DNA of 64,000 nt, from positions 109,052 to 173,051 of the forward strand of contig CAWIJI010000007.1 in the NCBI GenBank assembly GCA_963836435.1, read 5' to 3'. Below the pieces are notes generated by a model. The model was not told the DNA's origin, ran no database searches, and saw nothing but the letters and a program-made list of their open reading frames with translations. Made by a program: the position numbers and the translations under genes. Positions 1-16,042 of this stretch are shown in pieces; within the stretch, counting starts at the first letter, position 1; each line of letters starts with the position of its first letter. Source of the DNA: an uncultured Acidobacteriota bacterium. Its GTDB lineage: Bacteria; Acidobacteriota; Terriglobia; 20CM-2-55-15.

Positions 1-407
1 CCTTCAAAAGAAAAGGTAATTGTGATCTCATTGAAATACTCATCCCTTCGCTTGGCGGCCGTTATGCTTCGAGGACCGAGTGTGATATTCAGCTTCTTTG
101 CAGCATCCTCAACGATGGTCTGCAGCTCAACCGATGCCAGCGAAGGATTATCCCCGCGGATCAGGCGGCCCTCGCCTTCTGCAATGCTCTTCCTGGCTTG
201 CTCCAGAAGCTGCACATAATGGTCCTTGGCCGACAGCGCCCTGCGGAACCGCTTCAACTGATCTTCCTTCTCTTCGACGGCACTCGACTTGTCATGAAGC
301 TCGTCCCATGCCGGCATAACCACATGAGATGCAAGCAGGTAAACACCGACCGCCGAAGCCAGAACAATCCCCGCCCGCTTTTCACCTCCGCGCAGCACCA
401 CTTTCAT
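1..407 (-). CDS. gspM: Type II secretion GspM/PilO-like inner membrane protein (runs off the left edge)
   Basis: Not in the ORF track. ATG at 407 overlaps the gspL stop (ATGA). Translates MKVVLRGGEKRAGIVLASAVGVYLLASHVVMPAW..., one TM helix then coiled coil. Position after gspL fits GspM. Confidence 0.7.
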   Translation of the reverse strand, partial: MKVVLRGGEKRAGIVLASAVGVYLLASHVVMPAWDELHDKSSAVEEKEDQLKRFRRALSAKDHYVQLLEQARKSIAEGEGRLIRGDNPSLASVELQTIVEDAAKKLNITLGPRSITAAKRRDEYFNEITITFSFE

Positions 408-1741
408 TGAGGCACCTCGATGGTTGCTTTCAGGGTGAACCGGTCTTTACCTTTCGGATCGTGAGTCACGGCCGTTGTGAATTGCACTTCCTTGAAAAGA
501 GGACTGTCTTCAACGAGTTTCTGAATCTCCGAGGCCTTTGGTGCAAGGCCCGATATCGTGATCGTTCTGTCCTGATAGCCGTAGGTCGATATCCAGGCCG
601 TCTCGGGCAGGATACGTGTGAGTTCCAGCATTGCTTCCAGGGCATAGTCGCGGTTCCTGAAATGCCCAGCCAACACGCCGTATTTTCCGGAGAGCCGGGT
701 CAATTCCGACTGCTGACTGACAACCTCGCTGGCAACTGGCGCGATGCGCCGAATTTCTGTATCGAGCTTGGAGGCGTACACCGTTAATTGGTACGGTTCG
801 CGGCCCAGGAGGAGCATCCCGAGCAGCAGAGCCAGCCCGAAAAAAACGTATGTCGGAATCCATTGAACCTGATTCCGGCGATAGCGGAGCTCCCTGGGAA
901 CCAGGTTCGACTGGAAACCCGTCCTGCGAAACCCAAGCATTGCCGCCGCAATGGAACCAAAACGATCACTGCTGTCGAGTGCCGCATTCTCCATGGGCAA
1001 CGCGACATGTTCCATCGACTTCAGGCCCGAAGAGGCTGGGCCGAAAACAAGCAACCGCGCACTCGCAAGAGACGACAAGCGCCCCACAGCCATCAAACGC
1101 TCGACCGCCGTCTTCGCCGTGGAAATAACATCTTCTCCTGTCTGGGTCAGCGAGGCGAGTTGTCCGTCCTGAACCAGGCAACCCTCAACACGCCCTTCCT
1201 GGCAATCCAGAACGACGGTCGAGGAATCTCCGGGCCACAAAACGCCGACACCGTGCGCGTGGACGACCGACGACAGACACGCACCCGAAAGCGGCATACC
1301 TGCGTTCCTGAATAGAACAATCCACGGGTCGAGCGCGTCCCGGGGAATAATGGCGACGGTGACTCGGATCGTCCTGGAACCGCGACGGAGCGGCTCCTGG
1401 CTGAAATCCCAATAAATCTCGTCGGCAGGCCAGGGGGAGAGCGCCTCGATCTGGAGCGCAATCGCGGATTGAAGCTTCTCTGCTACCTCGACAGGAAACT
1501 CCAGCTGACGGATGGTTCCTCGATCACGCGGCAGGCTCAGGAACACATGCTGGATGGGAAGCTTGTGCAGCGTCACCAACTTCCCTATCTCGGACCTTTG
1601 TTCTTCCGGCGCCAGATCGAGGAACCCGGGTATTTCCAGTGTGCTTGAAAGCCGGAACTTCCTGCCCGAACTACGAACAACGGCCAGGCGAAGATCGTTT
1701 CCGGCAAGCTCGAGCCCGACACCTGTTCTGACGAAAATCAT
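404..1741 (-). CDS. gspL: Type II secretion GspL / PilM-PilN-like protein
   Basis: N-terminal actin-like cytoplasmic region (ALSPWPADEIYWDF), one TM helix, then a PilN-like C-terminus (LPETAWISTY...ISGLAPKASEIQKLVEDSPLFKEVQF). Likely start MIFVRTG at 1741. Confidence 0.75.
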   Translation of the reverse strand: MIFVRTGVGLELAGNDLRLAVVRSSGRKFRLSSTLEIPGFLDLAPEEQRSEIGKLVTLHKLPIQHVFLSLPRDRGTIRQLEFPVEVAEKLQSAIALQIEALSPWPADEIYWDFSQEPLRRGSRTIRVTVAIIPRDALDPWIVLFRNAGMPLSGACLSSVVHAHGVGVLWPGDSSTVVLDCQEGRVEGCLVQDGQLASLTQTGEDVISTAKTAVERLMAVGRLSSLASARLLVFGPASSGLKSMEHVALPMENAALDSSDRFGSIAAAMLGFRRTGFQSNLVPRELRYRRNQVQWIPTYVFFGLALLLGMLLLGREPYQLTVYASKLDTEIRRIAPVASEVVSQQSELTRLSGKYGVLAGHFRNRDYALEAMLELTRILPETAWISTYGYQDRTITISGLAPKASEIQKLVEDSPLFKEVQFTTAVTHDPKGKDRFTLKATIEVPQ

Positions 1742-1769
1742 ATCGGTTGACCGCTCCGCCTTCGCTCCA

Positions 1770-2759
1770 CTATTCAAACCGCCAACGATCAAATTTTGTT
1801 TCGATCACCCGCTTGTAGACCAAAGGCTGCAACGTGATGAATTGCAGCCGCTCCTCGCGCTTAAAGAGCATCCGCACCGTACGCGATATCCCAGTCGTCC
1901 CGATTACAGCTTTGGAAACCAGCTCTACCGGTGAACCGTTGTCGAATCTGAGATAGTCGAGCGTGTCTTTTTCGGTTAGCTCTGGAACTCTCTTCACAAG
2001 GTCGTCGGCGTTTTCGAAATTCTTGCTCTCCCGCTCAGCCGCGACGTGGGCGGCGATTTCTGCATTCATCAAGGGCAGCGCCATGAGGACTTCGACGGAT
2101 GCCAGGTTTGGGTTCACCCTGGCGTCTCCGGATTGCACCGTGACGAGGTCGCGAAGCCCCGGAATACGTCGATAGCGGCCGGTCGAAGGTTCCTGAACGA
2201 GCGAACCAAAGAAGATTTCCTCCGTCATGTTCCGAACCAGAAGAAGTTCGTCCACCGTTTGAAACGCGGCGTTTCTCGGCCTGCGCAATTGTCCCGCCGG
2301 CGCCACTGGATAGTCCGCGACTTCTCCGCCATAGAGGTGGGGAATGTCGTCGGCGTCGATCCAATCCAGAACGGAATCGACCAGCCGATTCCTTGTATCG
2401 CGGTCCACCCCCAACGAATCAAACATCGAAGCCAGCATTTTGTCCGACGCCTGATTGACATCGATGCGGCCCGCATCGGAGCCGAATTTCACATGCACCT
2501 CGCCGGAATCGAATGGGAAAATGTACTCACCGTTCTCCTGTCTGATCGGCGAGTCTTCCGGAATCGGCAGCTGTTTGCTATAGCTGTTAAACACGATTTC
2601 CGCGGCGCTCTTTGCCATTAAGAAAGCGCGTTCGGAATCGAACGCCTGGCTGGCCGATTCCATTTCAACCCGCACCGTCGAAGCCAGGGAGAGCGAAACC
2701 AGCGACAAAACCAGCACAATCCACAGAACGCTCATCAGAACTGACCCGCGCGCGTTCAT
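1770..2759 (-). CDS. gspK: Type II secretion minor pseudopilin GspK
   Basis: RG|SVLMSVLWIV N-terminus; GRIDVN, LVDSVLDWIDAD and RNAAFQTVDELLLV motifs. Confidence 0.9.
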   Translation of the reverse strand: MNARGSVLMSVLWIVLVLSLVSLSLASTVRVEMESASQAFDSERAFLMAKSAAEIVFNSYSKQLPIPEDSPIRQENGEYIFPFDSGEVHVKFGSDAGRIDVNQASDKMLASMFDSLGVDRDTRNRLVDSVLDWIDADDIPHLYGGEVADYPVAPAGQLRRPRNAAFQTVDELLLVRNMTEEIFFGSLVQEPSTGRYRRIPGLRDLVTVQSGDARVNPNLASVEVLMALPLMNAEIAAHVAAERESKNFENADDLVKRVPELTEKDTLDYLRFDNGSPVELVSKAVIGTTGISRTVRMLFKREERLQFITLQPLVYKRVIETKFDRWRFE

Positions 2760-3295
2760 TTGCGATTCACCATTTGAACGACGAAAGTGTCGTCGTCCAG
2801 CCGGACTCGCATCGCGGGTGGTATACCGTCATCCGTCTTCCACTCCGTTATCCATGCGGGCTTTTTGTCGACCTCTCCGAGAAACTCGAACGATAACCGA
2901 TTGAACTGCGCCAGAACCGTTGACGGACGAACTGCCGGCTGTCCGGGTATATATTCGACAAACGGCAGATCCGCATAAAGGAAGCGCCCCTGGTCCGATG
3001 CGTAATCGACTTTCCGAAGGTCCCCTGGACCGTCGACAAGGGAATAGTCCGAGAAGAATTCCAACCTGTCGCTCGTGCCCTGGAACAACTCTCCCGACAT
3101 CGCCAGCGGCAGTTGACGGCGGATCAACCGTTCCACGGTCGAACGTCGTTCGAGACGGTTGGCGGCCTTTGTTCCCCGTTCCCACGCGTTGAGGCCGACG
3201 CGAAACCCCGCAAAGGCAACGGTCATGACCATCGCCATGATGGCCATTGCGACAATCAACTCGATGAGAGTAAAGCCTTTACTCCGGAAGCGCAT
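2756..3295 (-). CDS. gspJ: Type II secretion pseudopilin GspJ-like
   Basis: Prepilin motif KG|FTLIELIVAMAI. Gene order H-I-J-K. Start is either 3295 (MRFRSKGF) or 3328. Confidence 0.75.
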   Translation of the reverse strand: MRFRSKGFTLIELIVAMAIMAMVMTVAFAGFRVGLNAWERGTKAANRLERRSTVERLIRRQLPLAMSGELFQGTSDRLEFFSDYSLVDGPGDLRKVDYASDQGRFLYADLPFVEYIPGQPAVRPSTVLAQFNRLSFEFLGEVDKKPAWITEWKTDDGIPPAMRVRLDDDTFVVQMVNRK

Positions 3296-3728
3296 CTTCG
3301 ATAGCCTGTTTGAAATCGTCGTTTTCATAGGACAACGCCGTGGCTTTCAGAGCTTCAAGTTTGATCTTCCGTTCACCCGATCGTCCCTGCCAGCGGACTT
3401 CCACATCGATTTTCATCACGGCTTCCGGCGTATTCCTCTCCAGCTTGCTGGGTATCCAGGGAGTGATATTGACGGTCCAGTGAGCCGGCGGGGCCGTCAG
3501 TTCACCGTCGATCACCGCCCCGGGAGGCAGCTTCGAAAGAAGCAGCGTCCGGTTCATGAGATCCTCGCCAGCCAACTGATAATGACGGACATCTTCGATC
3601 TTCTTGAGATTCGCCAGTGATCTCGACAGGAGAGCGAAAAGGGACGTCGTGGCGATACCGAATATCGCTGCAGCGACGATGACCTCAATGAGAGTAAAGC
3701 CACGTTGACTCCGCACGGGCGGCGTCAC
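3279..3728 (-). CDS. gspI: Type II secretion pseudopilin GspI-like
   Basis: QRG|FTLIEVIVAAAIF prepilin motif; C-terminal IDVEVRW. Confidence 0.75.
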   Translation of the reverse strand: MTPPVRSQRGFTLIEVIVAAAIFGIATTSLFALLSRSLANLKKIEDVRHYQLAGEDLMNRTLLLSKLPPGAVIDGELTAPPAHWTVNITPWIPSKLERNTPEAVMKIDVEVRWQGRSGERKIKLEALKATALSYENDDFKQAIEDALPE

Positions 3729-4123
3729 GGAAGAACGATCTCATGGGCGCCGCTACGAAGCCGGACGGTTCCTCCGCGAACAATCCCCGATGGCATCACA
3801 AAGAACGCGGCCGTGCGGGCATCGTTTTCCAGCACGATGTCGATTGAAGACGGCAGCACCGACTCGCGAATTGGCTTCATCTCATCGTTTACAAGAGAGA
3901 TGGCGCGGCGATTCCGATCGAAAACAACATATTGTGATTTCTCTGTACGCTCGGCCTGAAGACGGGCCATACGGATAAAACCGCGTGTCGCCTGTGCGGC
4001 GCTGTTCATCTGGAGACGATCGAACCCCGCCCCAATACGGGGCCCGACCAATCCTGTGACTATGGCCACAATCACCATAACCACAACGACTTCGATGAGA
4101 GTAAAACCGCGTCTTCCGGTCAT
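3725..4123 (-). CDS. gspH: Type II secretion pseudopilin GspH/FimT-like
   Basis: RRG|FTLIEVVVVMVIV; ARLQAERT; FFVMPSG. An alternative start MPTSSAGNS at 4195 overlaps the end of gspG. Confidence 0.75.
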   Translation of the reverse strand: MTGRRGFTLIEVVVVMVIVAIVTGLVGPRIGAGFDRLQMNSAAQATRGFIRMARLQAERTEKSQYVVFDRNRRAISLVNDEMKPIRESVLPSSIDIVLENDARTAAFFVMPSGIVRGGTVRLRSGAHEIVLP

Positions 4124-4169
4124 ACATTCATCAAGACGCGGCAGCGGCTTAAAAAGACGAACCGATGCG

Positions 4170-4607
4170 CTATTTCCAGCTGACGATGTCGGCATCGTTC
4201 CCTTCGCCGCCGTCGGCGCCGTCGGCGCCAAGTGACAGGAGATCGTAATCGCCGTGCAGGCCGGGCTGGGTGTAACGGTAAGGATGGTTCCAGGGGTCGA
4301 GCGGAATATCCTTCTTCATATAGGGGCCGTCCCAGTTCTCGACGTTCGGAGGCTTCACCTGCAGCGCGGCAAGCCCCTCTTCCGTGGTGGGATACCGCCC
4401 GACCTCCAGGCGGAAGGTATCGAGCACAGTACCGAACTCTCCGATCTGGCTCTTGGCCTGTAATTGTTTTCCCTTGTCCACTTGCTTGAACAAGCGGCCG
4501 CCCACCAGGGTCGCGAAAAGGGCAAGGATAACCATCACGACAAGCAGCTCAATCAGAGTGATGCCACGTTTGTTTTTCCGGCTGACCGGATTTGCAGCTG
4601 TGTTCAT
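4170..4607 (-). CDS. gspG: Type II secretion major pseudopilin GspG
   Basis: RG|ITLIELLVV; LDTFRLEVGRYPTTEEGLAAL, WDGPY, DPWNHPYRY, SLGADGADGGEGNDADI. Confidence 0.95.
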   Translation of the reverse strand: MNTAANPVSRKNKRGITLIELLVVMVILALFATLVGGRLFKQVDKGKQLQAKSQIGEFGTVLDTFRLEVGRYPTTEEGLAALQVKPPNVENWDGPYMKKDIPLDPWNHPYRYTQPGLHGDYDLLSLGADGADGGEGNDADIVSWK

Positions 4608-5815
4608 AGTCCAATGTCCGCGATGCTGATAATGGCCATCAGGATCGACAGCACAACCGCGCCGACCAGAACTCCCATCACCAGGATAATTGCGGGTTCA
4701 AATACCGACGTCAGCGCTTTGACCGACGAACGCACGTCTTTCTCGTAAACATCCGCGATCTGAAGCAACATCGTGTCGAGCCGCCCGGTTTCTTCACCAA
4801 CCTCCACGAGATGAACCGCCAGGGCAGGAAACACGCCGGCCTCCCGCATCGGTTTAGCAACCCCTTCACCCCGTTTGGCTCCTGCGGCGATTTTTGAGAT
4901 CCCTTCAGCCACGAGCTGGTTTCGCGCAATATCATGGACGATGCGAACCCCGGCGATAAGGGGAACGGCGCTCGAAGTCAACGTTCCCAGCGTTCTGGCA
5001 AAACGTGCCACTTCAATTTTCAGCACCGTCGCTCCGAGCAACGGCAGACGTATGATCCAGGAGTCCCAGACACGGCTGCCCTTCGGCGTGCGAAGCCAGG
5101 AACGCAATCCCGCAACGGCTCCCGCCATCAATAGCAGCGCCAGCCACCAGTAGCTGGTCGTGAAAACCGAGATTGCGAGCAGGACATGTGTGGCCGGTGG
5201 AACAGGAACGCCAAGATCCTGGAAAATCGCCGCGAATTTGGGAATCACGAAATAGAACAGAATACCGACGGATCCGATTCCGACTGCTGTCAGCAGGCAC
5301 GGGTAAACCAGGGATGCGGCCAGATAGCTTCTCATCTCATCCGCCGACCGTTCGAACTCCGCCAGACGTTCGAGAATCACATCCAGGACGCCTCCGGCCT
5401 CTCCCGCCCGAATCATGTTCACATACAAACGGGAGAAGTGCTTTGGATGCGAGGCGAGCGACTCGGCCAGGGACTTTCCACCTTTGATCTGCTTCAGGAC
5501 ATCCAGCACAACAGCGCGCAATGCCGGCTTGGCTGTGAGCTCCGCCGTTACCGCGAGGGCTCGATCCAGAGGCAGTCCAGCCCGGACAAGTGTCGTCAGC
5601 TCCTCCGTAAAATACAGAATGTCCCGCTTCGTGACCCATTGAAGGTTGAGCCCGCGAAGGGATTTCTTTTTCCTGTCGGCAGGTTCATCGATTGAAACAG
5701 GAATCAGACCCATGGCCTGAAGACGAGAAGCGGCCGCACGCGTATCGGCAGCTTCGAGGCGGCCTTCGGCAAAACGTCCTTCGTCATTGACCGCTTTATA
5801 AGTGAATGTCGCCAT
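4604..5815 (-). CDS. gspF: Type II secretion inner membrane platform protein GspF
   Basis: AGLPLDRAL, NMIRAGEAGGVL, VGEETGRLDTML, EPAIILVMG motifs. Confidence 0.95.
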   Translation of the reverse strand: MATFTYKAVNDEGRFAEGRLEAADTRAAASRLQAMGLIPVSIDEPADRKKKSLRGLNLQWVTKRDILYFTEELTTLVRAGLPLDRALAVTAELTAKPALRAVVLDVLKQIKGGKSLAESLASHPKHFSRLYVNMIRAGEAGGVLDVILERLAEFERSADEMRSYLAASLVYPCLLTAVGIGSVGILFYFVIPKFAAIFQDLGVPVPPATHVLLAISVFTTSYWWLALLLMAGAVAGLRSWLRTPKGSRVWDSWIIRLPLLGATVLKIEVARFARTLGTLTSSAVPLIAGVRIVHDIARNQLVAEGISKIAAGAKRGEGVAKPMREAGVFPALAVHLVEVGEETGRLDTMLLQIADVYEKDVRSSVKALTSVFEPAIILVMGVLVGAVVLSILMAIISIADIGL

Positions 5816-5825: not shown

Positions 5826-7522
5826 TCAAACTTCCTGGGTTACTCGAAGCACTTCGTCGGGCGTCGTGATGCCGGCGAGAACTTTCGAACAACCGTCATC
5901 CTTGAGCGAACGCATGCCGGAACGACTGGCCTGGGCCTTGAGCACCTTAGAATCCGATTTTGTGACCATCAACCGCCGCATTTCTTCGTCGATATCGAGC
6001 AGTTCGAATATTCCCAGCCGGCTTTCATAACCAGTGAGATCGCACGCCTTGCAGCCCCGACCGCGCTGCAGTTGACGTATTCTCCCAGGCCGTCCACCGG
6101 GAATCCGGCATCACGGAGCCCTTTCGCCGGAATGGATTCTGGCGCCTTGCATTCTCTGCAGTTCACGCGGACCAGACGCTGGGCCAGGATTCCGATCAGC
6201 GAAGAGGCCAGCAGATAATCCTGGACGCCCATATCCACCAGCCGCGTCACTGCGCTGGGCGCATCGTTCGTGTGCAGCGTACTGAAAACCAGATGGCCGG
6301 TGAGGGCCGAACGGATCGCGATCTCCGCCGTTTCCAGATCGCGGATTTCGCCGATCATGATGACATCCGGATCCTGCCGCACGATGTGCCGCAGTCCGGT
6401 GGAAAACGTCAGCCCAATCTGCGGATTCACCTGAATCTGATTGATCCCGTCCATCTGATATTCGACGGGATCTTCGATGGTGATGATCTTGCGATCCGGA
6501 ATATTGATTCGCTTCAGCGCGCTGTAGAGCGTGGTGCATTTGCCGCTGCCGGTCGGTCCCGTCACCAGGAAAATGCCGTGGGGTTTGGAGGTCATCTCAC
6601 ATACTTTCCCGTAGAGATCCTCCGGAAATCCCAGCATGCTCAGGTCGATCAGCGATGAATTGGATTGGTCCAGAATACGCATGACGACGCTTTCGCCATA
6701 CATCGTCGGAAGCGTCGATACGCGCAGGTCGATTTCCTTGCCGAGAACCTTGAGCTTGATGCGGCCGTCTTGCGGCAGCCGGCGCTCGGCAATGTTCAGT
6801 TTCGCCATCAGCTTGATGCGCGAAATGATCGCCGCCCGGATGGGGTTTGGCGGAGGATCGATGTTATGAAGGACGCCATCCACGCGATAGCGAAGACGCA
6901 GATCCCTTTCGAACGGCTCAATATGGATATCACTGGCCCGGGATTCCACTGCCCGGGAAATAATCAGGTTGACCATGCGGATCACCGGAATTTCCGACGC
7001 AAGGTCCCGCAGGTGTTCGATGTTTCATCGTCTCCGCCCGAGATCTCCCAGAGCCTCGATGGACGTCTCCGCCGGAATCGCCTCTCTTCCATACAGCTTG
7101 TCGAGTTCCGCCATGATCTCCGATTCGGCGGCCATGAAGATCCGAAGCGTGTGGCCGGTTCGAACCTGCAACGCGTTCAAGGTGTCGGTATCGTGAGGGT
7201 CGGCCGCAACGATTGAAAGAAGATCGCCTTCGAGATGGACGGGAAGCACACGCTGGCCCGAGGAAGTCGGTAGGGCAGCCTGGCGGGCTCAATCGGAACC
7301 GCCGGATATTCTCCGGCAACAGCGGACTTTCAACTGGTCCGCCAGTACGCGGACCACATCGCTTTCGGCGATGTAGCCCAGATCGATCAGTATCCGTCCC
7401 AGTTTATCGCGTCGTTCTTTCTGCAACGACAGCGCACTCTGAAGATCCTCGGCGGAAAGGAGTCCCCGCTCCTGGAGCAATTCCCCCAGGGGTCGAGTCG
7501 CCGTAGCGAGCAGCTCTTTCAT
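5826..7522 (-). CDS. gspE: Type II secretion ATPase GspE, split by several frameshifts (probably sequencing errors)
   Basis: Fragments 7289-7522 (MshEN-like [11 protein letters not shown]...LGRILIDLG), 7025-7249, and 5969-6985 ([52 protein letters not shown]). The C-terminus [28 protein letters not shown] is in another frame and ends at 5826. Confidence 0.9.
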
Positions 7523-7989
7523 CAGATCTCTTTGTAAGTGACCAGCTGCGGTGCAGATTTCTTCGCGCTGAATACCAGTTGCTTCGGTAGATTCGGGACG
7601 AAAAGAGGATTGTAGTTGTCCAGATGGACGACAATCGTCAGAGATTCGTCCTCCCCAATCGATTCCATCGAGGTTATGCGCTGTTTGATCAGGGCCGTAA
7701 TCCTGGACTTAATTTCCTTTTGTCGATCGCGAACGTGAGCAAGCACCAGTTCCTTCGAGGTCGCGCTGGGAAAGAGTGGATTGCTGGGCGGCTCGAATGC
7801 GACTTCAACGCTCACGATAACCCCGTAGCCTTCGATCAGCATCGCCCGCGACCCGGACATCAAACTGGATCCGGTTTCCCTCACCAGGTTGTCCGACTCG
7901 TTCTGAAGCGGCGTCATCTCCTTTTTGAACGCGTCAATCGGAGACTGAAGCGCCCCGGCAAGAATCACGAATATCAAAGTCTTGAGCAT
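7522..7989 (-). CDS. Hypothetical exported protein
   Basis: Signal-peptide-like MLKTLIFVILAGALQ. Lies between the anti-sigma gene and gspE with tight spacing. Confidence 0.7.
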   Translation of the reverse strand: MLKTLIFVILAGALQSPIDAFKKEMTPLQNESDNLVRETGSSLMSGSRAMLIEGYGVIVSVEVAFEPPSNPLFPSATSKELVLAHVRDRQKEIKSRITALIKQRITSMESIGEDESLTIVVHLDNYNPLFVPNLPKQLVFSAKKSAPQLVTYKEI

Positions 7990-7991: not shown

Positions 7992-8501
7992 TCAGTCTCC
8001 CGACCCGGCAGAACGTTCCCCGGCAAGTTTCTGCACGGCGGATCCCCACTCGTAAATCATCCGCCGCTGTTGCTCGTTAAGATTTGCGAGACCTGCGATC
8101 TGGCTTCGGAGTTCCTGGATTTCCAGAGATGTCTGCTGCTCCGCTGCGGACGGCTGCTCCACTGACGCGCCGAACGCAATCGTCAGCTGCGAGTCTTGCC
8201 ACTGCACGTGAATGGGCGCCGCCATCGCCACAACGATCAACAGAACCGCCGCAGTGGCCATGGGGACGAGCCACCTCCAGGTCCATCGCCGAACGGGTCT
8301 TTCAAAAACAAGAGCTGAGCTGCGAGGCGGATCGAAATCGGGCACGGACTTGAGCAAAGACCTCGTCCGCTGGAAGTGCTCCACGGCCACCCTGCACTCC
8401 CCGCATTTCGCGACGTGCGCCCTGGCCTCCGCCATCTCCGCCGCAGACAACTCCTCAAAAACATAGTCTGTAATGTGGTCTCCCAAATGTGACATGACCA
8501 A
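7992..8501 (-). CDS. Zinc-binding (zf-HC2/ZAS) transmembrane anti-sigma factor
   Basis: HxxxCxxC motif (HVAKCGEC), one TM helix, directly downstream of an ECF sigma gene. Confidence 0.85.
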   Translation of the reverse strand: MVMSHLGDHITDYVFEELSAAEMAEARAHVAKCGECRVAVEHFQRTRSLLKSVPDFDPPRSSALVFERPVRRWTWRWLVPMATAAVLLIVVAMAAPIHVQWQDSQLTIAFGASVEQPSAAEQQTSLEIQELRSQIAGLANLNEQQRRMIYEWGSAVQKLAGERSAGSGD

Positions 8502-8506: not shown

Positions 8507-9034
8507 TTACCCAAGAATGTCGCGAAGCTTCTCAAAGCTCATATATAGCCGCGACTTCACCGTCGAAACGGGCGCATCCTGAATCGCCGCGATTTCTTCA
8601 AACTTCAGCTCCTGATAGACCTTCAAAATTACAACCTCGCGTTGATCCTCCGGCAATTGCCGCAGCGCGTTCTGCACCGCGATCCGGTTTTCAGGCGACG
8701 GCGATCGGAATCCGGCTTCCGGGTCCAGCTCCACAAAGGTCTTGCCGATATCCTTCCGCAGCCGCGAGTAACATGTGTTGTGCGCAATCCGATAGAGCCA
8801 CGCTTTGAAACGGTCTCGATCCTGGAGGGTGCCCAACTCCCGAAAGGCCTTCAGAAAGACGTCCTGGCAGAGGTCCATGGCTTCATCGCGGCTACCCATC
8901 ATCCGCAAAATGAAGTTGTATATGGGCTTTTCCCACTGCCGGACCAGAAGATTGAACCCTTCCGAATCGCCATTGAGCACGCGCTCGATGAGGTTTCTTT
9001 CAGTCCTCACACTCTTAAGACTCCAATCCTGCAC
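8507..9034 (-). CDS. ECF RNA polymerase sigma-70 factor
   Basis: Region 2 (AMDLCQDVFLKAF, FKAWLYRIAHN) and region 4 (LPEDQREVVILK...FEEIAAI...STVKSRLY). Confidence 0.93.
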   Translation of the reverse strand: MQDWSLKSVRTERNLIERVLNGDSEGFNLLVRQWEKPIYNFILRMMGSRDEAMDLCQDVFLKAFRELGTLQDRDRFKAWLYRIAHNTCYSRLRKDIGKTFVELDPEAGFRSPSPENRIAVQNALRQLPEDQREVVILKVYQELKFEEIAAIQDAPVSTVKSRLYMSFEKLRDILG

Positions 9035-9046: not shown

Positions 9047-10669
9047 CTATCTGTAGATTCTGACCCGTTCCCGGAAGGGGTGCCGAAGGAACTCGAAGCC
9101 AAAGGTCATCAGGCCCAGGAAGTTCTTTCGATCCATAGCCGTGATCTGCTTGAGCACCATAAGGAAGACAACATAGACAGGAGCGAAAACGATGAAATCG
9201 AGAGCCAGCTTCGCCGGAATCAGATACCGGACCTGCCTCAGGGAATCCACCACAGGCAGCAGGTGATGAAGCCCGGAGGCCGCACAAATGGCAGCAAGAC
9301 CTGAAACGACCGGCCGGGCGTGGATGTCTCGGAACATCTCTTCGGCCGGAGTTCCCAGGTATTTGCGATGGAACATGACGAGTAAATAGACCGCCGAGAT
9401 GAGGAGCGCAGCGGCCGTTCCGGCAGCCGCGCCGGGAGCTCCGAACCGCTGTACCAGCGCGACTCCCAGGATGGGACTGAGCACGATGAGCAGGATGGTA
9501 CTTTGCATGTCGAATTCCGGCCTGCCAACTCCAGCTCCAATCTGGCTTGCCGCGCCGCCAAGAACGTTGGCGCCATACCCGATCGCCAGAATCTGCAGAA
9601 TCATCACCGACCGGACATCGAACCGGTCGCCAAGCCACAATCGAAAGATAGAATCCGCTTCCAGGACTATGAAACCCACCAGACCGATCGTGATCAGCGC
9701 CACATATTTCGAGGTCATCGCATAGGTTCGAAGGATTTTCGTCTTCTCGTTGCGCATGCCGAGTTCCGATGCGGCAGGGATAATCGCCGACATCATCAGG
9801 AGCGGAACGGCTCGCATCAGGGTGGCCATTCTGGCGCTCACTTCGTAGAACTTTACTGACGCTACTCCCAGAAACTTTGCTGCAATCAGCTTGTCCAATT
9901 GAAAGCACGTCAGGCCGCCAACCCGACTCACCAGGATCTGCGTTCCATAAGTGAACATCTCTTTCAGCAGCTTCCCGTCGAAGTAGAATCCCAGCGAAAT
10001 TGCCGGAATGGCGCGTCGAACGGAATACCAGGAAATCACAACATACATCACAGAATTGGCTATGGCGTTCAGCGCAAGCCCCTGGAGTCCAAGATGCGCA
10101 GGGAGGACGATAACCGTGCCGACAATGTTGATAATACTCAGTGCCATGTCGATGGCGTTGGCCTTATCCATCCGCTGAACCCCGCGGAAAACCGACGAAA
10201 ACATCATGCCGAAATTTCCGACCGCGCAGGCGATCAGCACGTAGACGTAGGTGTTCGACAAACCGCTGATCGCGGACAAATGAAGTACAGAAAAGGCCAG
10301 CGGGCGAATGGCCAGCCCCACCGCAAGAAAAAGCACACCGTGGAGGACGTAGAAGATGAATCCCGAGAAGAGAACCTTGTTGATTTTCTGATAGTCCCCG
10401 CAGGTGTAATACGCGGAAATAAACTTCACGAACGATGAACCAAGGCCCAGATCGAGCAGCCCCGTCACGTTCAGGAGAATGCTCAGAATCGCCCATACGC
10501 CGAATTCGCTGTCGCTCAGATAATGGAGCATGAAGGGAGTCAGCAGGATTGTCGCCGCAAAACTCCAGAATCGTCCGAGGAAATTGAAGAAGGTGTTGGC
10601 GACAAGCTTTTGGGAGAAGTCGCCCAGCAGAGTTATTGGTTCGTCGTTTTTGCCAGACGGCTCAGTCAT
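9047..10669 (-). CDS. Wzx-like polysaccharide flippase (MOP superfamily)
   Basis: Many TM helices; LVANTFFNFLGR, EFGVWAIL, LLDLGLG, QLDKLIAAKFLG, LRTY. Likely start MTEPSG at 10669. Confidence 0.85.
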   Translation of the reverse strand: MTEPSGKNDEPITLLGDFSQKLVANTFFNFLGRFWSFAATILLTPFMLHYLSDSEFGVWAILSILLNVTGLLDLGLGSSFVKFISAYYTCGDYQKINKVLFSGFIFYVLHGVLFLAVGLAIRPLAFSVLHLSAISGLSNTYVYVLIACAVGNFGMMFSSVFRGVQRMDKANAIDMALSIINIVGTVIVLPAHLGLQGLALNAIANSVMYVVISWYSVRRAIPAISLGFYFDGKLLKEMFTYGTQILVSRVGGLTCFQLDKLIAAKFLGVASVKFYEVSARMATLMRAVPLLMMSAIIPAASELGMRNEKTKILRTYAMTSKYVALITIGLVGFIVLEADSIFRLWLGDRFDVRSVMILQILAIGYGANVLGGAASQIGAGVGRPEFDMQSTILLIVLSPILGVALVQRFGAPGAAAGTAAALLISAVYLLVMFHRKYLGTPAEEMFRDIHARPVVSGLAAICAASGLHHLLPVVDSLRQVRYLIPAKLALDFIVFAPVYVVFLMVLKQITAMDRKNFLGLMTFGFEFLRHPFRERVRIYR

Positions 10670-11684
10670 GACGTTCAATGGCGAGATTCGGAATCCTCTG
10701 GCCCCCTGACTGCGGGACAGGGTTGGCAGTGTGTCCGTTCTCCACCGATCGAACGTATTCACGGTAGCCAAGGAAGAAGTGGTAGCGAATTGCCCAGTAA
10801 TAGTGCTGATCGAGAGCGGCGCCAACCTTCCCTGTTCCGCGACGCTCTTCCCACTCCGTTAATCCCTTATAGAAGGGGTTGGATGCAGTCATCAGCATTC
10901 GATAAAAGACATGAAAGCGTTTCAGCACACCCATGCGCTTGCCGTTTTCCGTAAACCGCTTCCGCAGCTCCGGGTGCAACTCAATCATCTTGCCAAGCGA
11001 GTATCCCGCCTGCTGGCATCGCTCAATGAACTGCTCGCAGGTCGGAAAATACTTGTGCCGGCCCTTCGCCGCAACCCCGGGAACCATCCGACACCCGCTT
11101 TTTTCCAGCCTGTAGCCAAGTTCGATGTCTTCCATGCCGTAGACAAAGAATTCCTCGTTGAAGCCGTCGACTTCCCAGAGCTGCTTGCGGCTGGTTGACA
11201 CGTTGCCCGTATGGTAGTAGGAAAAATCCATCGGTTGGCCGCAGGCGATGCTATACGGATTGAAGATTCCCCTGTCGCGAAGGTAACGAAGAAACGGATC
11301 GGTGGAATCCTGCCATGACGACATCACGGTTCCAATAATCGACGCGTCAGGATTCTCGTCGTGGTATTGGATGTGCCTCTCCACGAGGTCCGGCTCGGCC
11401 AGAATGTCGTCGTCGATGAAGAGCACGATTTCGCCGGAAGCCTGGCGAATGCCGACGTTGCGTGTGGCTGCCGCCCCAGGCTTAGCCTGGACGAAACCCT
11501 TGAAATTTGGGTAAACAGCCGCTTTTTGGGCCAGCACGGCCGGAGTGCTGTCTGAGGAGTTATTATCGACGATAAGAACTTCGTAGACGTCCCGACCAAC
11601 TGTTTGATTCTCAATCAGATCGATCGTTGTCGCCAGCATGTCTGCGCGATTCAACGTCGGAATGACCACACTAACTCTATACAC
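10662..11684 (-). CDS. Glycosyltransferase family 2
   Basis: VSVVIPTLNR, VDNNSSD, LFIDDD, GFNEEF..YGMEDIELGYRL. Confidence 0.93.
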   Translation of the reverse strand: MYRVSVVIPTLNRADMLATTIDLIENQTVGRDVYEVLIVDNNSSDSTPAVLAQKAAVYPNFKGFVQAKPGAAATRNVGIRQASGEIVLFIDDDILAEPDLVERHIQYHDENPDASIIGTVMSSWQDSTDPFLRYLRDRGIFNPYSIACGQPMDFSYYHTGNVSTSRKQLWEVDGFNEEFFVYGMEDIELGYRLEKSGCRMVPGVAAKGRHKYFPTCEQFIERCQQAGYSLGKMIELHPELRKRFTENGKRMGVLKRFHVFYRMLMTASNPFYKGLTEWEERRGTGKVGAALDQHYYWAIRYHFFLGYREYVRSVENGHTANPVPQSGGQRIPNLAIERHD

Positions 11685-11703
11685 TTATTATCCTTAGTGC
11701 GAC

Positions 11704-12789
11704 TTATTGAGACAGTGACGTTTCCTGCAGACGGACCCAGGGATGATCATGGCCGCATCTGACCTCAGCGTGAAGCAAGTACGGAATATAACGAATGTGC
11801 TCCACCAAAGCAATTGCGAACAAAGCCTTACTCCGTAACGAGTAAGCGCTCGTAAGTAACCGGTGCCGAAGGAAATTCCAGAATAACTTCCGATCTTTTC
11901 TTCCGCCGAACCGGTAATACAGAAAGAGAGAATTCCTAAAACTAAAGTAATTTTCTTGGGTCCGCCGCTTTCCCGGGACCACGTCCTGCGTGAAGTGCTG
12001 GACCACCGCAGCGGGCTCGTAGACGCACTTCCAGCCCAGCAACCATAACTTCCAACTGAGATCGACGTCTTCGCAATACATGAAGAAAAGACGCTCATCA
12101 AACCCCCCCACCTCCTCAAAAGCCTTCCGGCGAATCAAGGCGGCCGCCCCCGAACACCAGGTGGTCTCCCCGGTCGACCGATCCCAGGCTTTGGGATGCT
12201 CCCGTGGCGTCTGCCGCGCATCGCAGATTCCGATTCGATCGTCCGACTGCGCACGAGCCAGCAAGTTTTCCAGACAACCGGGTTCCAATTCGGTGTCGGG
12301 ATTCAGAAGGAACATGAACCTGGCCTGGCTCTGATTCGCCAACAGATTCATGCCCCGGGCAAAACCGTTGTTGCGCAGAGATCGAAGGACGTGCACGGGA
12401 AAAGGCAAAGTCCCGGCCGCGGCAGCCAGCAGATCCGGAGTTCCGTCGCTGGACCCGTTGTCAATGAAATAGCCGTTGATGGGAATGGAAATTCGTTGGA
12501 GGCTTTCAAGCAACCCGGGAATCCAGCGTCGGCTATTGTGCACAACGACCAGCAGATCTACCTCTGGTTGATGGCTGCGCCCTGCCGGGCTTGCATTCGC
12601 TCCGGGCATCTCTTGTTGGCTGCGCCCTGCCGGGCTTGCATTCGCTCCGGGCATGCCTTGTTGGCTGCGCCCTGCCGGGCTTGCATTCGCTCCGGGCATC
12701 TCTTGTTGGCTGCGCCCTGCCGGGCTTGCATTCGCTCCGGGCATCTCTTGTTGGCTGCGCCCTGCCGGGCTTGCATTCGCTCCGCTCAT
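11704..12789 (-). CDS. Glycosyltransferase family 2 (WbbL-like putative rhamnosyltransferase) with an N-terminal repeat-derived extension
   Basis: VVVHNS, IDNGSSDG, NNGFARGMN, LLNPDT, SGAA, GGFDERLFFMYCEDVDLSW. The first ~73 aa are about five copies of MPGANASPAGRSQQE. Confidence 0.88.
   Translation of the reverse strand: MSGANASPAGRSQQEMPGANASPAGRSQQEMPGANASPAGRSQQGMPGANASPAGRSQQEMPGANASPAGRSHQPEVDLLVVVHNSRRWIPGLLESLQRISIPINGYFIDNGSSDGTPDLLAAAAGTLPFPVHVLRSLRNNGFARGMNLLANQSQARFMFLLNPDTELEPGCLENLLARAQSDDRIGICDARQTPREHPKAWDRSTGETTWCSGAAALIRRKAFEEVGGFDERLFFMYCEDVDLSWKLWLLGWKCVYEPAAVVQHFTQDVVPGKRRTQENYFSFRNSLFLYYRFGGRKDRKLFWNFLRHRLLTSAYSLRSKALFAIALVEHIRYIPYLLHAEVRCGHDHPWVRLQETSLSQ
12568..12789 (-). 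repeat. Tandem array of ~5 x 45-bp REP-like units inside a CDS
   Basis: Unit GGAGCGAATGCAAGCCCGGCAGGGCGCAGCCAACAAGAGATGCCC, nearly identical copies, internal GCCC-N4-GGGC hairpin. Confidence 0.95.
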
Positions 12790-12884
12790 CTGTTGACCGC
12801 TTCGCTCATGGATTTACGCGACCGCCCTCCAGATAGGCTGTGCTCGCCAGTAGGAGCACGAAACGCCACACGAACGTCACCGCC

Positions 12885-14045
12885 TTAATGGGAAACAGCA
12901 GCTTCCGCAACAACATCCAGAAGTTCTCCGCCAATCCGGTCCCACGTAAACCGTTTCAGGATCATTTGCCGTGCATTTCGCCCGATACGTCGCCTCAGCT
13001 CAGGATCGGAAATCAAACGCCGTAGGACGCGTTCGTATTCAGCCGGCGTCTCAGCCAGGAATGCCTCCTGACCGCTCTGAATCGGAAAACCCATCGCGCC
13101 GATCTTCGTCGTCACGACGGGACATGCCATCGAAAACGCCTCAAGAAGCTTCACTCTCTGTCCACTCCCCGAAAACAGTGGCGCCAGGACAATGGTCTGC
13201 GACGACCGGTATAACGACCGGGTATCCGGGACGTAACCGGGATACTCGACATTCGGTCTACTGCCCAGACCCTGCGGCTCCGGCGCTCCCGCGATGACAA
13301 ACCGCACGCCCGCAAACCTCGGGGCAACGTGCTTCACCAGAAACTCTGCCGCTTCCACATTCGGCTGGTGTCGAAAGTTCCCCACGAAGAGAACCGAAAC
13401 AGCCATCGCCGCGTCTTCGCTAAACGCGTCCGGCGCGAACTCCTCGGAGTCAATACCGATGGGAACGGCTCTAACCGTCGCCTCCGGAGCGTAGGATTTG
13501 AAGTACTCCGCATCGTCTTTTGTCATTGTGACAATGCGATTGAACTTCCTAAGTTGTCCTATTTCGTAACGAAGGATCTGCATCCACCGGTAAAAAAGCC
13601 GGAGCTTTTCAGCCGGATCGGTCTCCCCTTCAAATGCCTCATGAGCATTTTTTGACTGCGCTTCGTGCGCAGTAAGTACAGAAAAAACACAGTCACGCCG
13701 AAACTGTGCCATTTGCAAGTACTCACACTGCAGAACATCAATTTTTCCAGCACGCAGCGTGCCATCCACTGCCCGATGCATTTCAGGTGTGCTGAATTCG
13801 CGAACTATGAAAGGAGTCAGGGACAACCAGTGCGGACGGAAGTCGGGAATTCGTCTAATCCCGCGGAGCGATTCACAAAATGGGCGGACCGAAGCAAGCA
13901 TGTCCTGCTCTTCGTCGCTTCCTACAAATGACAGCACGTGGACCCGATGTTTCTCCGACAGAATCCGGATGTTGTGGAACATCCGCACGCCACCTCCGTG
14001 ACGATTCAACACCGGAGGGTAAGCGGTCACCATGAGGACGTTCAT
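12885..14045 (-). CDS. Glycosyltransferase family 4
   Basis: MNVLMVTAYPP...HGGGVR; LFVGNFRHQPNVEA; GSGQRVKLLEAFSMACPVVTT. Start at 14045 overlaps the upstream stop. Confidence 0.92.
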   Translation of the reverse strand: MNVLMVTAYPPVLNRHGGGVRMFHNIRILSEKHRVHVLSFVGSDEEQDMLASVRPFCESLRGIRRIPDFRPHWLSLTPFIVREFSTPEMHRAVDGTLRAGKIDVLQCEYLQMAQFRRDCVFSVLTAHEAQSKNAHEAFEGETDPAEKLRLFYRWMQILRYEIGQLRKFNRIVTMTKDDAEYFKSYAPEATVRAVPIGIDSEEFAPDAFSEDAAMAVSVLFVGNFRHQPNVEAAEFLVKHVAPRFAGVRFVIAGAPEPQGLGSRPNVEYPGYVPDTRSLYRSSQTIVLAPLFSGSGQRVKLLEAFSMACPVVTTKIGAMGFPIQSGQEAFLAETPAEYERVLRRLISDPELRRRIGRNARQMILKRFTWDRIGGELLDVVAEAAVSH

Positions 14046-15127
14046 CGCGTCAAATCTATGACGTCCCGGTCGCCGAGAACATGCGATCCCATATTTGCTA
14101 GGCGGCGGTGGATCGCCAGCGGCAGCCGCAAACACGCGCGAAGATAAGCGCGCAATTCGAACGCCGCGCCATACTGCGTGATTGCCCGACCATGAATTGC
14201 GGGAAGCCTCACCAGGTGCTCGACCAACATTCGAAAGTCCGTCAGGTTCTTCCACACGAAGAGGTAGTGATTCCGGCGCGTGGTGTTGTTCACGAACAAC
14301 TCGCCGAATCGTGGCCCGCTTGTAGCGCGATGTTTGTGCATCACGCGGCTGCCGGGAGCAAACAGAGAGTGCCACCCACGCTTCCACGCCTGATACGACA
14401 GATCGGTGTCCTCCACATAGAAAGGGTGATACAGCGAATCGAACCCGCCGAGGGCCCTGAACTTCCGGCAGTCAATCGCGCAGGCTCCGCCACCCGCCCA
14501 GAAAACGGGAAGCGCAGCGCGCCCCTCATCTTGCAAGGTTACCGGATCATGCCAAAGGTAAAACAGACCGCTCTCGAAGCGAGCCCTGGTCTTGCCAGTT
14601 TCCTGTTTGGATTTCGCGGGATCGGGGACTGTAATCTGCGACGCCACCGCAAAGACCTGGGGGTCGACAAACGGAAGGAGGAGAGGTTTCAAAAACTCGG
14701 GATCAACAGACATGTCGTTGTTCAGAAGAACGACAAGGTCCGTCTGCACCTGCGCTATGCCTCGATTATTCCCAACCGAAAAGCCGTAGTTCCGATCGAG
14801 TTCCAGCACGCGAACCTGCGGGAACCGGCTTTTCAGGAACTCGACGCTTCCGTCGGTGCTTCCGTTGTCTACCACCAGAATCTGGTGTCCCTTTGACGCT
14901 GTCAGCACGCTGGGAAGAAATTCCTCCAGCAAGTGTTTGCCGTCCCAGTTGAGAATCTGAATCGTCACAGATTCGGCGTTTGGCTGCCGAACCGGAATAG
15001 AACTTCGTCGGAGCAGCGACAGCGGAAGGGATGCCGCTTGTGCGATCAAAAGCAGAACTGACACAACGGCGTCGGCAGGCAGGAGACAGGCCACGAAAAC
15101 GAACACGCGGATTCTTTGAACGGTCAT
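14042..15127 (-). CDS. Glycosyltransferase family 2
   Basis: ILNWDG, VVDNGSTDGS, NYGFSVGNN, LLNND, GGFDSLYHPFYVEDTDLSY. Confidence 0.92.
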   Translation of the reverse strand: MTVQRIRVFVFVACLLPADAVVSVLLLIAQAASLPLSLLRRSSIPVRQPNAESVTIQILNWDGKHLLEEFLPSVLTASKGHQILVVDNGSTDGSVEFLKSRFPQVRVLELDRNYGFSVGNNRGIAQVQTDLVVLLNNDMSVDPEFLKPLLLPFVDPQVFAVASQITVPDPAKSKQETGKTRARFESGLFYLWHDPVTLQDEGRAALPVFWAGGGACAIDCRKFRALGGFDSLYHPFYVEDTDLSYQAWKRGWHSLFAPGSRVMHKHRATSGPRFGELFVNNTTRRNHYLFVWKNLTDFRMLVEHLVRLPAIHGRAITQYGAAFELRAYLRACLRLPLAIHRRLANMGSHVLGDRDVIDLTR

Positions 15128-15206
15128 CTTGTTTGTTGGCTTCGCGCTATCCCTTACGGCTTCGCGCTTTCGCGCTCACGCTCCGCGCGGGCTCGCCTTC
15201 GCTTCG
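15125..15206 (-). repeat. Expanded variant of the 45-bp REP-like element
   Basis: Minus strand GAAGCGAAGGCGAGCCCG...GCGAAGCCAACAAACAAGATG. Ends match the 45-bp unit; the middle matches 18580-18630. Confidence 0.6.
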
Positions 15207-16042
15207 AGATATTCGGCCAGGGCCTGGCGCCAGTGAAGCATCTGATTCAATCCCAAATCTTTCAACCGCTTGTTCTCAAGCACGGAATACCGTGGGCGCA
15301 GCGCCGGAGACTTATAGAGAAGAGAAGTCGTCGGCTGGAGGTCTGCCCGGATGCCGGCGAGATCGAAAATCGCAGACGCAAACTCATACCAGGAGCAGGA
15401 CCCTTCATTTGTGATGTGGAACAATCCGTAATGGGATGTCGGAAGCAAGACTACCATCTGCCGAGCCAGATCGAGGGTCGAAGTCGGTGTCAGCGTCTGA
15501 TCGTTGACCACCTGGATCGGGTCGCCATTCCGAGCCTTCTTCAGCATCGTTTCGACAAAGTTCCCGCCCTTGCCCTGCGAGCCTGCGTGTCCATAGAGTC
15601 CGCAGCTCCGGATGACAAAGTGCCTCCGGGCCGTGCTTCTGACGAGGTATTCCCCGGCCAGCTTGGAATTTCCATAGACGCTCAACGGGCGCGGTTCGCT
15701 GGATTCAACGTACGGCGTCGACCTCGACCCATCGAACACGTAATCCGTACTGACGTGCGCGAGGGGCACGTCAAGATCGTTGGCGATACGAACGAGATTC
15801 AAGACAGCCAGGGTATTCGCGCCATAAGCCAGCTCGGGGAGGGACTCGCAATCATCCACGCGATGATACGCCGTGAGATTCACGATCGTTTCTGGCCGCG
15901 ACTCGGTCAAGACCGACCGGGCCCTTGCATGATCTGTAACGTCGAAATCCATGCGAGTCAATGCAATGATTTCATGGCCTGACAGCGCTGTGGTCAGGTC
16001 GCTTCCGAGTTGTCCGTTGGAGCCGAGTATTGCGATCCGCAT
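15176..16042 (-). CDS. rmlD: dTDP-4-dehydrorhamnose reductase
   Basis: MRIAILGSNGQLG, HVSTDYVFDG, PLSVYGNSKLAGE, VVNDQTLTPT, PALRPRYSVL. Confidence 0.95.
   Translation of the reverse strand: MRIAILGSNGQLGSDLTTALSGHEIIALTRMDFDVTDHARARSVLTESRPETIVNLTAYHRVDDCESLPELAYGANTLAVLNLVRIANDLDVPLAHVSTDYVFDGSRSTPYVESSEPRPLSVYGNSKLAGEYLVRSTARRHFVIRSCGLYGHAGSQGKGGNFVETMLKKARNGDPIQVVNDQTLTPTSTLDLARQMVVLLPTSHYGLFHITNEGSCSWYEFASAIFDLAGIRADLQPTTSLLYKSPALRPRYSVLENKRLKDLGLNQMLHWRQALAEYLEAKASPRGA

Follow-up and report, generated by a model that had tools for sequence, protein, structure and literature searches.

Among bacterial secretion machines associated with a dedicated extracytoplasmic function (ECF) sigma factor, a case close to the one considered here is the PUMA3 system of Pseudomonas aeruginosa, in which the sigma factor VreI is reported to raise the expression of the neighbouring Hxc type II secretion system (T2SS) genes (PMC2729926). 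Here, we analyse a T2SS locus from an uncultured soil acidobacterium of the class Terriglobia; the window, i.e., the whole stretch of 64,000 nucleotides that was studied, comprises positions 109052-173051 of contig CAWIJI010000007.1 (C7) in an 18-contig assembly (GCA_963836435.1, referred to as G000) that is 68.8% complete. In this window, the genes of an ECF sigma factor, an anti-sigma factor, and a small exported protein directly precede a gsp gene cluster. We favour, with some reserve, the reading that these genes form a self-regulated ECF-T2SS module that is old in the class and lies inside a glycan region by descent, the adjacent glycan genes being its neighbours and not part of it.

The likeness to PUMA3 lies in an ECF sigma factor and an anti-sigma factor encoded beside a T2SS cluster. 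PUMA3 differs in that it is described as a cell-surface signalling system, with a transmembrane VreR and a VreA whose N-terminal half resembles TonB-dependent transducers, and in that the reported VreI regulon also includes two-partner secretion and ExbBD genes (PMC2729926), whereas the targets predicted here are the ECF operon itself and an internal gsp promoter. The present locus instead encodes a 169-aa zf-HC2 anti-sigma factor with one membrane segment, followed by the small exported protein, and neither a FecR nor a TonB-receptor family was recognised by Pfam or NCBIfam in the three genes that precede gspE, an arrangement that is not of the Vre type. A further link between an RpoE-type ECF sigma factor and a T2SS comes from Vibrio cholerae, in which loss of eps genes is reported to raise rpoE promoter activity (PMC12369372). 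The ECF of our locus is also RpoE-like, but sigma-E of Vibrio is a global envelope-stress regulator encoded elsewhere, whereas here a dedicated ECF gene is the first gene of the T2SS cluster across the acidobacterial class. HrpL (group ECF32), which is associated with type III secretion genes (PMC7826278), and SigP, which is connected with the type IX secretion system in Porphyromonas by the title of a reference cited in the same paper, resemble the present case in being ECFs dedicated to a secretion machine, but they belong to other ECF groups and to other secretion systems. In its main text, the paper on ECF classification (PMC7826278) mentions no T2SS-linked group, and no description of this layout in Acidobacteria was present among the matches listed in our literature searches.

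Organization and conservation of the ECF-T2SS module

The open reading frames (ORFs) of the locus were scanned against Pfam and NCBIfam, with scores compared to the cut-offs of the models, and the start codons given below are preferred, homology-guided choices. All genes of the module lie on the minus strand. The ECF gene (8507..9034) encodes an RpoE-like protein that contains sigma-2 and sigma-4 domains only (PF04542, PF08281), scores 83 bits against TIGR02937 (cut-off 42.9), and matches the RpoE model TIGR02939 with an E-value of 8.9e-29, below its cut-off; its candidate starts are 9034 and GTG 9010, the latter being favoured by family alignments. A gap of 5 nt separates it from the gene of the single-pass anti-sigma factor of the zf-HC2 (ZAS) type (7992..8501; PF13490, 28.6 bits vs. 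22.2; hydrophobic segment at residues 74-102), which is followed by a gene for a small exported protein of 155 aa with a signal-like N-terminus (exp175, 7522..7989). The latter protein has no Pfam or NCBIfam match, its closest ESM Atlas clusters are acidobacterial hypotheticals, and it is confined to Acidobacteriota as far as seen.

The gsp genes begin with the frame-broken ATPase gene gspE (5826..7522; TIGR02533, 498-543 bits on the core vs. a cut-off of 630) and the platform gene gspF (4604..5815; PF00482, 178.6 bits; TIGR02120, 390 bits vs. a cut-off of 424). The major pseudopilin gene gspG (4170..4607) scores 152 bits against TIGR01710 (cut-off 88.9) and encodes a protein with a prepilin N-methylation motif (PF08334, PF07963). 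Four minor pseudopilin genes follow: gspH (3725..4123, ATG 4123; PF07963), gspI (3279..3728; PF07963; XpsI and gspI models below cut-offs), gspJ (2756..3328; PF07963; GspJ models below cut-offs), and gspK (1770..2759; PF21687, 49.9 bits vs. 26.2; PF03934, 29.2 bits vs. 24.2), all recognisable at the Pfam level, with each of the four scoring below the cut-off of its equivalog model. The remaining platform genes are a gspL-like gene of the PilM/PilN fusion type (404..1792; PF05137, 42.7 bits), identified only via PilN and weak GspL models (TIGR01709, TIGR01175), and gspM, whose 5′ part occupies 1..407 (NF040576, E 2.7e-14) and which ends at contig position 108841, its full 205-aa product matching PF10741. 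To the left of the window, gspM is followed by a GspC-like gene (234 aa; T2SSC at E 0.054 only) and by gspD (contig 106191-108131), encoding a secretin with an N0 domain (TIGR02517, 431 bits vs. a cut-off of 351; PF21305, PF03958, PF00263).

The conservation of this arrangement was examined in two sets of genomes. In the first, 36 locus proteins were mapped onto the 40-kb neighbourhoods of 18 relatives (14 from the same family and 4 from other families). The second consists of 80 GspF-anchored loci of Terriglobia (1.39 Mb), labelled in their record titles as Terriglobia, Bryobacterales, Bryobacteraceae, Solibacteraceae, Ca. Versatilivoraceae, and Ca. Sulfopaludibacter, and has seven genomes in common with the first; the GspF alignment was chosen for this collection scan, and the GspL alignments (A1, A2) had no sufficiently conserved stretch. 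Because the relatives are kin, the locus counts given here overstate independence. Orthologs of the gspL-like gene were found in 21 of the 24 other genomes of the family, and all 13 family genomes in which the contig is long enough retain the order ECF gene, anti-sigma factor, small protein, gspE through gspD. In the wider set, an ECF gene was sought within 5 kb upstream of gspF, and non-family loci were considered informative if at least 4.5 kb of upstream sequence was available. A co-directional ECF gene is located upstream of gspE/F in 8/8 family-level loci and in 55/57 others, i.e., in 63 of the 65 informative loci. The gspHIJK genes have moved 5-10 kb away from the slot between gspG and gspL, in some cases with inversion, in the six family genomes G003, G018, G014, G010, G004, and G020 (loci L033-L044 and L051-L052), and a separate copy of the ECF-type motif described below accompanies each of the relocated units.

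A promoter-like motif before the ECF gene and within the gsp cluster

A bipartite motif composed of GACTTTTT, 12 bases, and GCGTCTT is located upstream of the ECF orthologs and ends approximately 10 nt before the ECF start codon. Its core, GACTT-N15-CGTC, is present in 41 of 66 ECF upstream regions, compared to a maximum of 5 in 20 shuffles. Both its -35 part (AAC/GAC-TTT-type) and its -10 part (CGTC-type) resemble what we take to be the usual elements of ECF promoters, and the motif would be a promoter that is read by the ECF of the locus. A position weight matrix (PWM) was built from the sites upstream of ECF orthologs, and positions scoring at least 17 were counted as matches. The 80 loci contain 107 such matches, all on the gsp strand, including 56 before the ECF gene and 50 within the gsp cluster; a site before the ECF gene was detected in 55/67 loci and an internal site in 48/64.

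In the window itself, a relaxed form of the pattern (GWCTTT-N14-MGTC) has exactly two matches in 64 kb, both on the minus strand, with 0.5 expected by chance. The first, P1 (9019..9042), consists of GTCTTTCC, a spacer, and GAGTC, lies between the flippase stop at 9047 and the likely ECF start GTG 9010, and aligns with the motifs upstream of the ECF orthologs; it is kept in family members even where a flippase or glycosyltransferase (GT) gene abuts the ECF gene. The second, P2 (4135..4158), lies between the gspG stop at 4170 and the gspH ATG at 4123. It reaches a PWM score of 21.2, being one of four positions with a score of at least 20 among 9.88 million genome positions, and has a counterpart at the same site in relatives.

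Among the 42 pattern matches in the 40-kb neighbourhoods of the 18 relatives (649 kb), 35 are directly before the ECF gene, gspL, or gspH, including those of relocated or inverted gspHIJK units in six genomes, and none precedes a GT, flippase, rmlD, or cargo-like gene. The internal site of the family is intergenic: genomes with the canonical order have it before gspH, and those with a displaced gspHIJK have it before gspL and again before the relocated gspH unit. In other lineages, the internal motif is located inside the gspK frame, approximately 450-520 nt before gspL, and codes for P-S-F-R-A-R-H-A-S-F; these gspK-internal sites use TCT in 39/43 and TTT in 42/43 cases, versus background frequencies of 5% and 30%, respectively. 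Since the best genome-wide PWM matches outside the locus are followed either by no recognisable gene or by alaS, we propose no regulon beyond the locus.

The same genome-wide scan brought up, as weak PWM matches, a repeat of approximately 31 nt (TTAGACATTTTGCACGCCGGAGGCGTGAAAG, containing the hairpin GCACGCC...GGCGTG) that is dispersed over the genome in more than 30 copies. Examples in G000 are C6:119548 and 119690, C10:141792-142270, and C11:540406 and 540642, some of them forming arrays with a spacing of about 140-240 nt. This repeat looks like a repetitive extragenic palindromic (REP)-type element.

Proposed regulation of the module

Under the reading that we favour, the unit would comprise the ECF sigma factor, the zf-HC2 anti-sigma factor, the small periplasmic protein, gspE to gspM, the GspC-like gene, and gspD. 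The ECF is predicted to transcribe its own operon (the ECF, anti-sigma, and small-protein genes and gspEFG) from the compact, near-leaderless P1, and also to drive P2 before gspH, from which transcription would continue to gspD. The anti-sigma factor and the small exported protein presumably keep the ECF inactive until a periplasmic cue arrives, whose release of the sigma factor would result in positive feedback on the machine. The rmlD, GT, and flippase genes upstream as well as a large glycan region downstream would be neighbours by descent in one lineage, probably with transcription of their own. An earlier note on this DNA, made from the window sequence alone, had suggested that the embedded ECF controls the T2SS, and this suggestion is supported by the adjacency of the ECF gene to gspE (63/65) and by the presence of the motif before both the ECF gene and the internal gsp units.

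Several observations weigh against this reading. P1 is a weak variant of the motif, with a weaker -35 part and AGTC in place of CGTC; its score on the class-wide PWM is negative, and it was recognised only through alignment with the three closest relatives, which share AGTC. Because the internal motif of other lineages lies in the gspK frame, part of its conservation may be due to protein constraint, and the argument from rare codons is partly circular because these sites were picked by the PWM. Transcription of the glycan genes could continue into the ECF operon, as the gap between flippase and ECF genes is only 36 nt and contains no terminator. In addition, glycan genes are present on either side of the T2SS in 8/8 family-level loci, which a purely neutral view of the neighbourhood fails to explain. 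Finally, gspE is broken in the assembly, and the T2SS may therefore not work in this organism; a prepilin peptidase (GspO/PilD, PF01478) was also not found in the 68.8%-complete assembly.

Glycan genes upstream of the module

The earlier note had described a minus-strand gene order of rmlD-GT2-GT4-GT2-GT2-flippase-ECF-anti-sigma-exported protein-gspE-M, which is confirmed by ORF calls, Pfam, and NCBIfam. Its first gene is rmlD (15176..16042, ATG 16042), which encodes a dTDP-4-dehydrorhamnose reductase (TIGR01214, 294 bits vs. a cut-off of 224; PF04321) and is divergent from ahpC on the plus strand (16100-16681). It is followed by GT2_c (14042..15127; PF00535, PF13641), a GT2 glycosyltransferase with an N-terminal membrane segment (hydrophobic residues 5-34), and by the GT4 gene GT4_u (12885..14045; PF13692, PF00534; TIGR03087-like, E 2.7e-40, below cut-off), whose ATG at 14045 gives a 4-nt overlap with the GT2_c stop. 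Two further GT2 genes, GT2_b (11704..12789; PF00535 from residue 80; start possibly at 12609) and the EpsD-like GT2_a (10662..11684; PF00535, 97.5 bits; NF041875, E 1.8e-46, below cut-off), are followed by the gene of a MOP-family (Wzx-like) flippase with 10 hydrophobic segments (9047..10669; PF13440, 50 bits vs. a cut-off of 23; PF01554). The 5′ end of the GT2_b frame contains a 45-bp tandem repeat of 5.1 copies (12568..12795; Tandem Repeats Finder score 414, 95% matches), each unit of which codes for MPGANASPAGRSQQE with its own in-frame ATG, and a change in repeat copy number could alter the N-terminus or the intergenic length. The statement that all junctions of the run are shorter than 100 bp is true for the preferred starts, which give overlaps or gaps of at most 95 nt, but the 95-nt gap before GT2_b results from choosing the first among five in-frame ATGs in the repeat, and it becomes 275 nt if GT2_b starts at 12609.

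The same-strand run extends over about 70 kb and about 60 genes (approximately contig 56-127 kb), and co-directionality is therefore not specific to the T2SS and glycan genes. In window positions 1-17200, a sigma-70 promoter scan gave 5 promoter-like sites vs. 6.5 expected, and a terminator scan gave 28 terminator-like structures vs. 18.3 (sd 4.1) expected; in neither case was any of them informative at a junction.

A cargo-like protein and a glycan region downstream of gspD

The earlier note had also pointed to the left-hand sequence as the place to look for gspD/C/N, a ligase or oligosaccharyltransferase, and a substrate gene. Besides gspD and the GspC-like gene, this flank contains a cargo-like secreted protein and a GT-C/tetratricopeptide repeat (TPR) protein gene beside a GT2 gene; the run of the window and the contig 69.4-109.5 kb ORFs yielded no ligase and no oligosaccharyltransferase family of the PglL/PglB type. 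The same Pfam scan, in which several ORFs were without any family, yielded only the flippase of a Wzx/Wzy pathway, with no Bac_transf, Glycos_transf_4, Wzy_C, Wza, or Wzc.

The cargo-like gene (minus strand, contig C7:104063-105724, corresponding to L002 14964-16625) is separated from gspD by a 466-nt gap and encodes a protein of 553 aa that carries a signal peptide and lacks Cys; Ser and Thr together make up 22.6% of its residues and charged amino acids 6.9%. It has no Pfam match, and all of its 205 homologs are unnamed or hypothetical. Its predicted structure is an all-beta string of immunoglobulin (Ig)-like domains (pLDDT 80.8) with Foldseek matches to AgI/II C123 and PrgB stalks, and in this model the protein resembles the Ig-like stalks of Gram-positive adhesins. 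A terminator-like hairpin is located directly after its stop codon, and the RNA fold of the intergenic region between gspD and this gene is not unusual (z -1.07). Most of its metagenome homologs are on contigs of about 1.6-2.3 kb; such short contigs, the long upstream gap, and the hairpin would fit an abundant single-gene transcript.

The next genes encode a second secreted protein, a 224-aa GT2 enzyme whose top NCBIfam matches are AglJ, dolichyl-phosphate hexose transferase, and PpgS (all below cut-off), and a 746-aa protein with C-terminal TPRs. The membrane half of the latter models as a GT-C fold (pLDDT 75.7, pTM 0.83), and its top 40 Foldseek matches are all GT-C enzymes (STT3, AglB, PglB, AftB, Pmt4, ArnT). 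D46 and D47 in its first extracytoplasmic loop form the acidic pair of GT-C enzymes, are invariant in 11 sequences, and are presumably catalytic. The protein is similar to the PMT/TMTC enzymes in its GT-C fold, the DD pair in the first loop, the C-terminal TPRs, and the adjacent Dpm1/AglJ-like GT2; it differs from them in having no curated PMT family match and in belonging to a family with thousands of members. Its membrane domain has no Pfam match at E-values up to 10, including the PMT family, and no PDB sequence match. The GT-C/TPR family has 2368 matches, with several paralogs on single contigs, and some homologs carry the Joint Genome Institute (JGI) name protein O-mannosyltransferase. 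Further left on the same strand, there are genes for GT4s and an MsbA/HepA-like ABC protein. Contig C7:69-100 kb (stretches L149 and L002) is rich in unusual sugar genes, all on the T2SS strand; they encode NeuB, a NeuC/UDP-GlcNAc 2-epimerase, a KdsD-like protein, heptose kinase, transferase, and phosphatase enzymes, a HisH/HisF-like pair, a C-methyltransferase acting on sugars, a rhamnosyl O-methyltransferase of the CmcI family, and a sulfotransferase.

Is the glycan neighbourhood part of the system?

An alternative explanation, which was also the idea of the earlier note, is that the T2SS and the glycan genes constitute one system, in which the Ser/Thr-rich Ig-like protein or the pseudopilins would receive sugars in the periplasm, and the glycoprotein would then leave the cell through the T2SS to build a surface layer or adhesin. 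As donors, this explanation invokes lipid-linked sugars supplied by the local GT2/GT4 enzymes with the flippase and by the pair of polyprenyl-phosphate-sugar synthase and GT-C/TPR enzyme. We regard this explanation as unlikely, yet deserving of a full hearing. Behind gspD lie plausible candidates for a cargo and for a glycosylation pair acting in the periplasm, i.e., the 553-aa secreted protein and, after the second secreted protein, the AglJ/dolichyl-phosphate/PpgS-like GT2 with the GT-C/TPR enzyme and its invariant DD. This four-gene order is kept in genomes G015, G005, G016, and G006, and full-length orthologs of the 553-aa protein adjoin the T2SS in approximately ten family genomes. On the other side of the module, the GT/flippase block precedes the ECF gene in 10 of 13 family neighbourhoods, and in the other three, rmlD and an epimerase gene are retained at a distance of about 3 kb upstream from the ECF gene, with a double GT2 in the interval in the one that was scanned (G003). 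The block is also upstream of the ECF gene in all 8 family-level loci of the wider set and in five Versatilivoraceae-like loci.

The broader comparison argues against such a system. The linkage, which holds in 8/8 loci at the family level, was found in no more than 6 of the 46 non-family loci (the five Versatilivoraceae-like loci and one weak match), leaving 40 with no glycan gene upstream of the ECF gene. The genes upstream of the ECF in unlinked loci are unrelated to glycan synthesis (carboxyltransferase, M20 peptidase, SecA, ABC-F, and SSF symporter), some being on the opposite strand. In a quick IQ-TREE tree of GspF with midpoint root, all 14 glycan-linked rows fall into one well-supported clade together with one unlinked row, requiring two changes. 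The linkage is thus a trait of one lineage that reflects at most one or two events, and not a repeated association. Within the family, the functionally unrelated ahpC or fumC also stay beside rmlD in 9/13 neighbourhoods, which indicates that general synteny is still high at this depth.

The promoter-like motif points in the same direction. In the window and its left flank, neither the pattern nor the PWM scan placed it before rmlD, the GT genes, the flippase gene, or the cargo-like gene, and the window has a promoter-like site exactly at the boundary between flippase and ECF genes. The left flank has a single pattern match (L002 335-358), which lies inside a coding region and is within chance (at least one match in 40 of 200 shuffles). 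Moreover, the cargo-like gene, with its upstream gap and the hairpin after its stop, looks like a unit of its own, and in the family genera with a displaced gspHIJK, the locus lacks this gene, or no more than its C-terminal domain turns up elsewhere. The GT-C/TPR enzyme is not specific to the locus, given its numerous matches and paralogs, and the stretches scanned yielded neither a priming transferase nor a Wzy, a ligase, or an enzyme of the PglL/PglB type. Taken as a whole, the interpretation of the earlier note is partly supported, by the tie between the ECF and the T2SS and by the gene content of the left-hand sequence. Its coupling idea is given some plausibility by the genes after gspD, but the motif offers no support for it, and its synteny is that of a single lineage.

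A bolder combination would have the ECF, the anti-sigma factor, and the small protein act as a load sensor of the T2SS, with two fixed promoters across Terriglobia, on a machine that, in the lineage of the window, has come to export an abundant O-glycosylated Ig-like surface protein whose sugars come from the flanking genes via the GT-C/TPR enzyme. We consider this improbable; if true, it would represent a bacterial T2SS that is coupled to protein glycosylation and builds a surface layer.

Integrity and type of the secretion machine

No intact GspE ATPase frame is present in the locus. Compared to its closest ortholog, that of G002, gspE has five indels near 7325, 7254, 7054, 7024, and 6092, resulting in two in-frame stops and a shifted C-terminus, and its Walker A motif (window 6500-6530) reads GPTGSGKC vs. 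GPTGSGKS in the ortholog. The serine is, we assume, a catalytic residue, and its replacement by cysteine is either a further assembly error or a real change. As approximately 35 neighbouring genes are intact, these defects might suggest that gspE is a true pseudogene and the T2SS cluster a decaying relic, a separate question from that of the glycan genes and a possibility that we consider distinctly improbable and have set aside. Four of the five indels are deletions, and they come as frame-restoring pairs, which fits assembly indel errors. In addition, tdk and ispG (window 20750-22540) are each split over several frames; ispG, which occurs nowhere else in the assembly, lies 14 kb from gspE and is broken into at least four frame pieces. 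The assembly has three GspE/PilB-type ATPase loci, each of them likewise split into frame pieces, and it is only 68.8% complete despite its 18 long contigs. The breaks in gspE are therefore probably assembly indel errors. A comparison of ORF coverage as a gauge of assembly frameshifts gave no informative signal. The two further split ATPase genes of the GspE/PilB family are located at C16:15131-16415 and C6:484108-485688 of G000.

The least probable alternative, which we consider very improbable and have set aside, is that the pseudopilus machine exports polysaccharide itself in the manner of the cyanobacterial Hps loci: as in those loci, pseudopilin and GT2/GT4 genes are side by side, the scanned region has no Wza/Wzc-type export genes, and weak matches were found to HpsE (E 1e-19), HpsN (E 8e-15), HpsC (E 6e-4), HpsP (E 3.8e-36), and HpsO (E 1.9e-9), but these score 19-125 bits vs. 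cut-offs of 200-575 and reflect generic GT or pseudopilin similarity, the locus has what looks like a complete Gsp set with its own secretin (GspD and GspG above the equivalog cut-offs, and GspK domains present), and the same ECF-T2SS module occurs without adjacent glycan genes in 40 of the 46 other loci.

Implications

For genome scans, the locus provides a caution, as its long same-strand run, which had looked like one system, is better read as a conserved module in a lineage-specific neighbourhood. The module itself would add a T2SS case, with an ECF type unlike that of VreI-Hxc, to the short list of secretion machines that are run by dedicated ECFs. If the cargo-like protein is both glycosylated and T2SS-dependent, the locus would become a new model for coupled glycosylation and secretion. 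Acidobacteria are among the most abundant soil bacteria, and little is known about how they control protein secretion. A T2SS with its own ECF switch and predictable sites would offer a way into this question, since a cultured relative in which the sigma factor is released should activate the machine and reveal its cargo.

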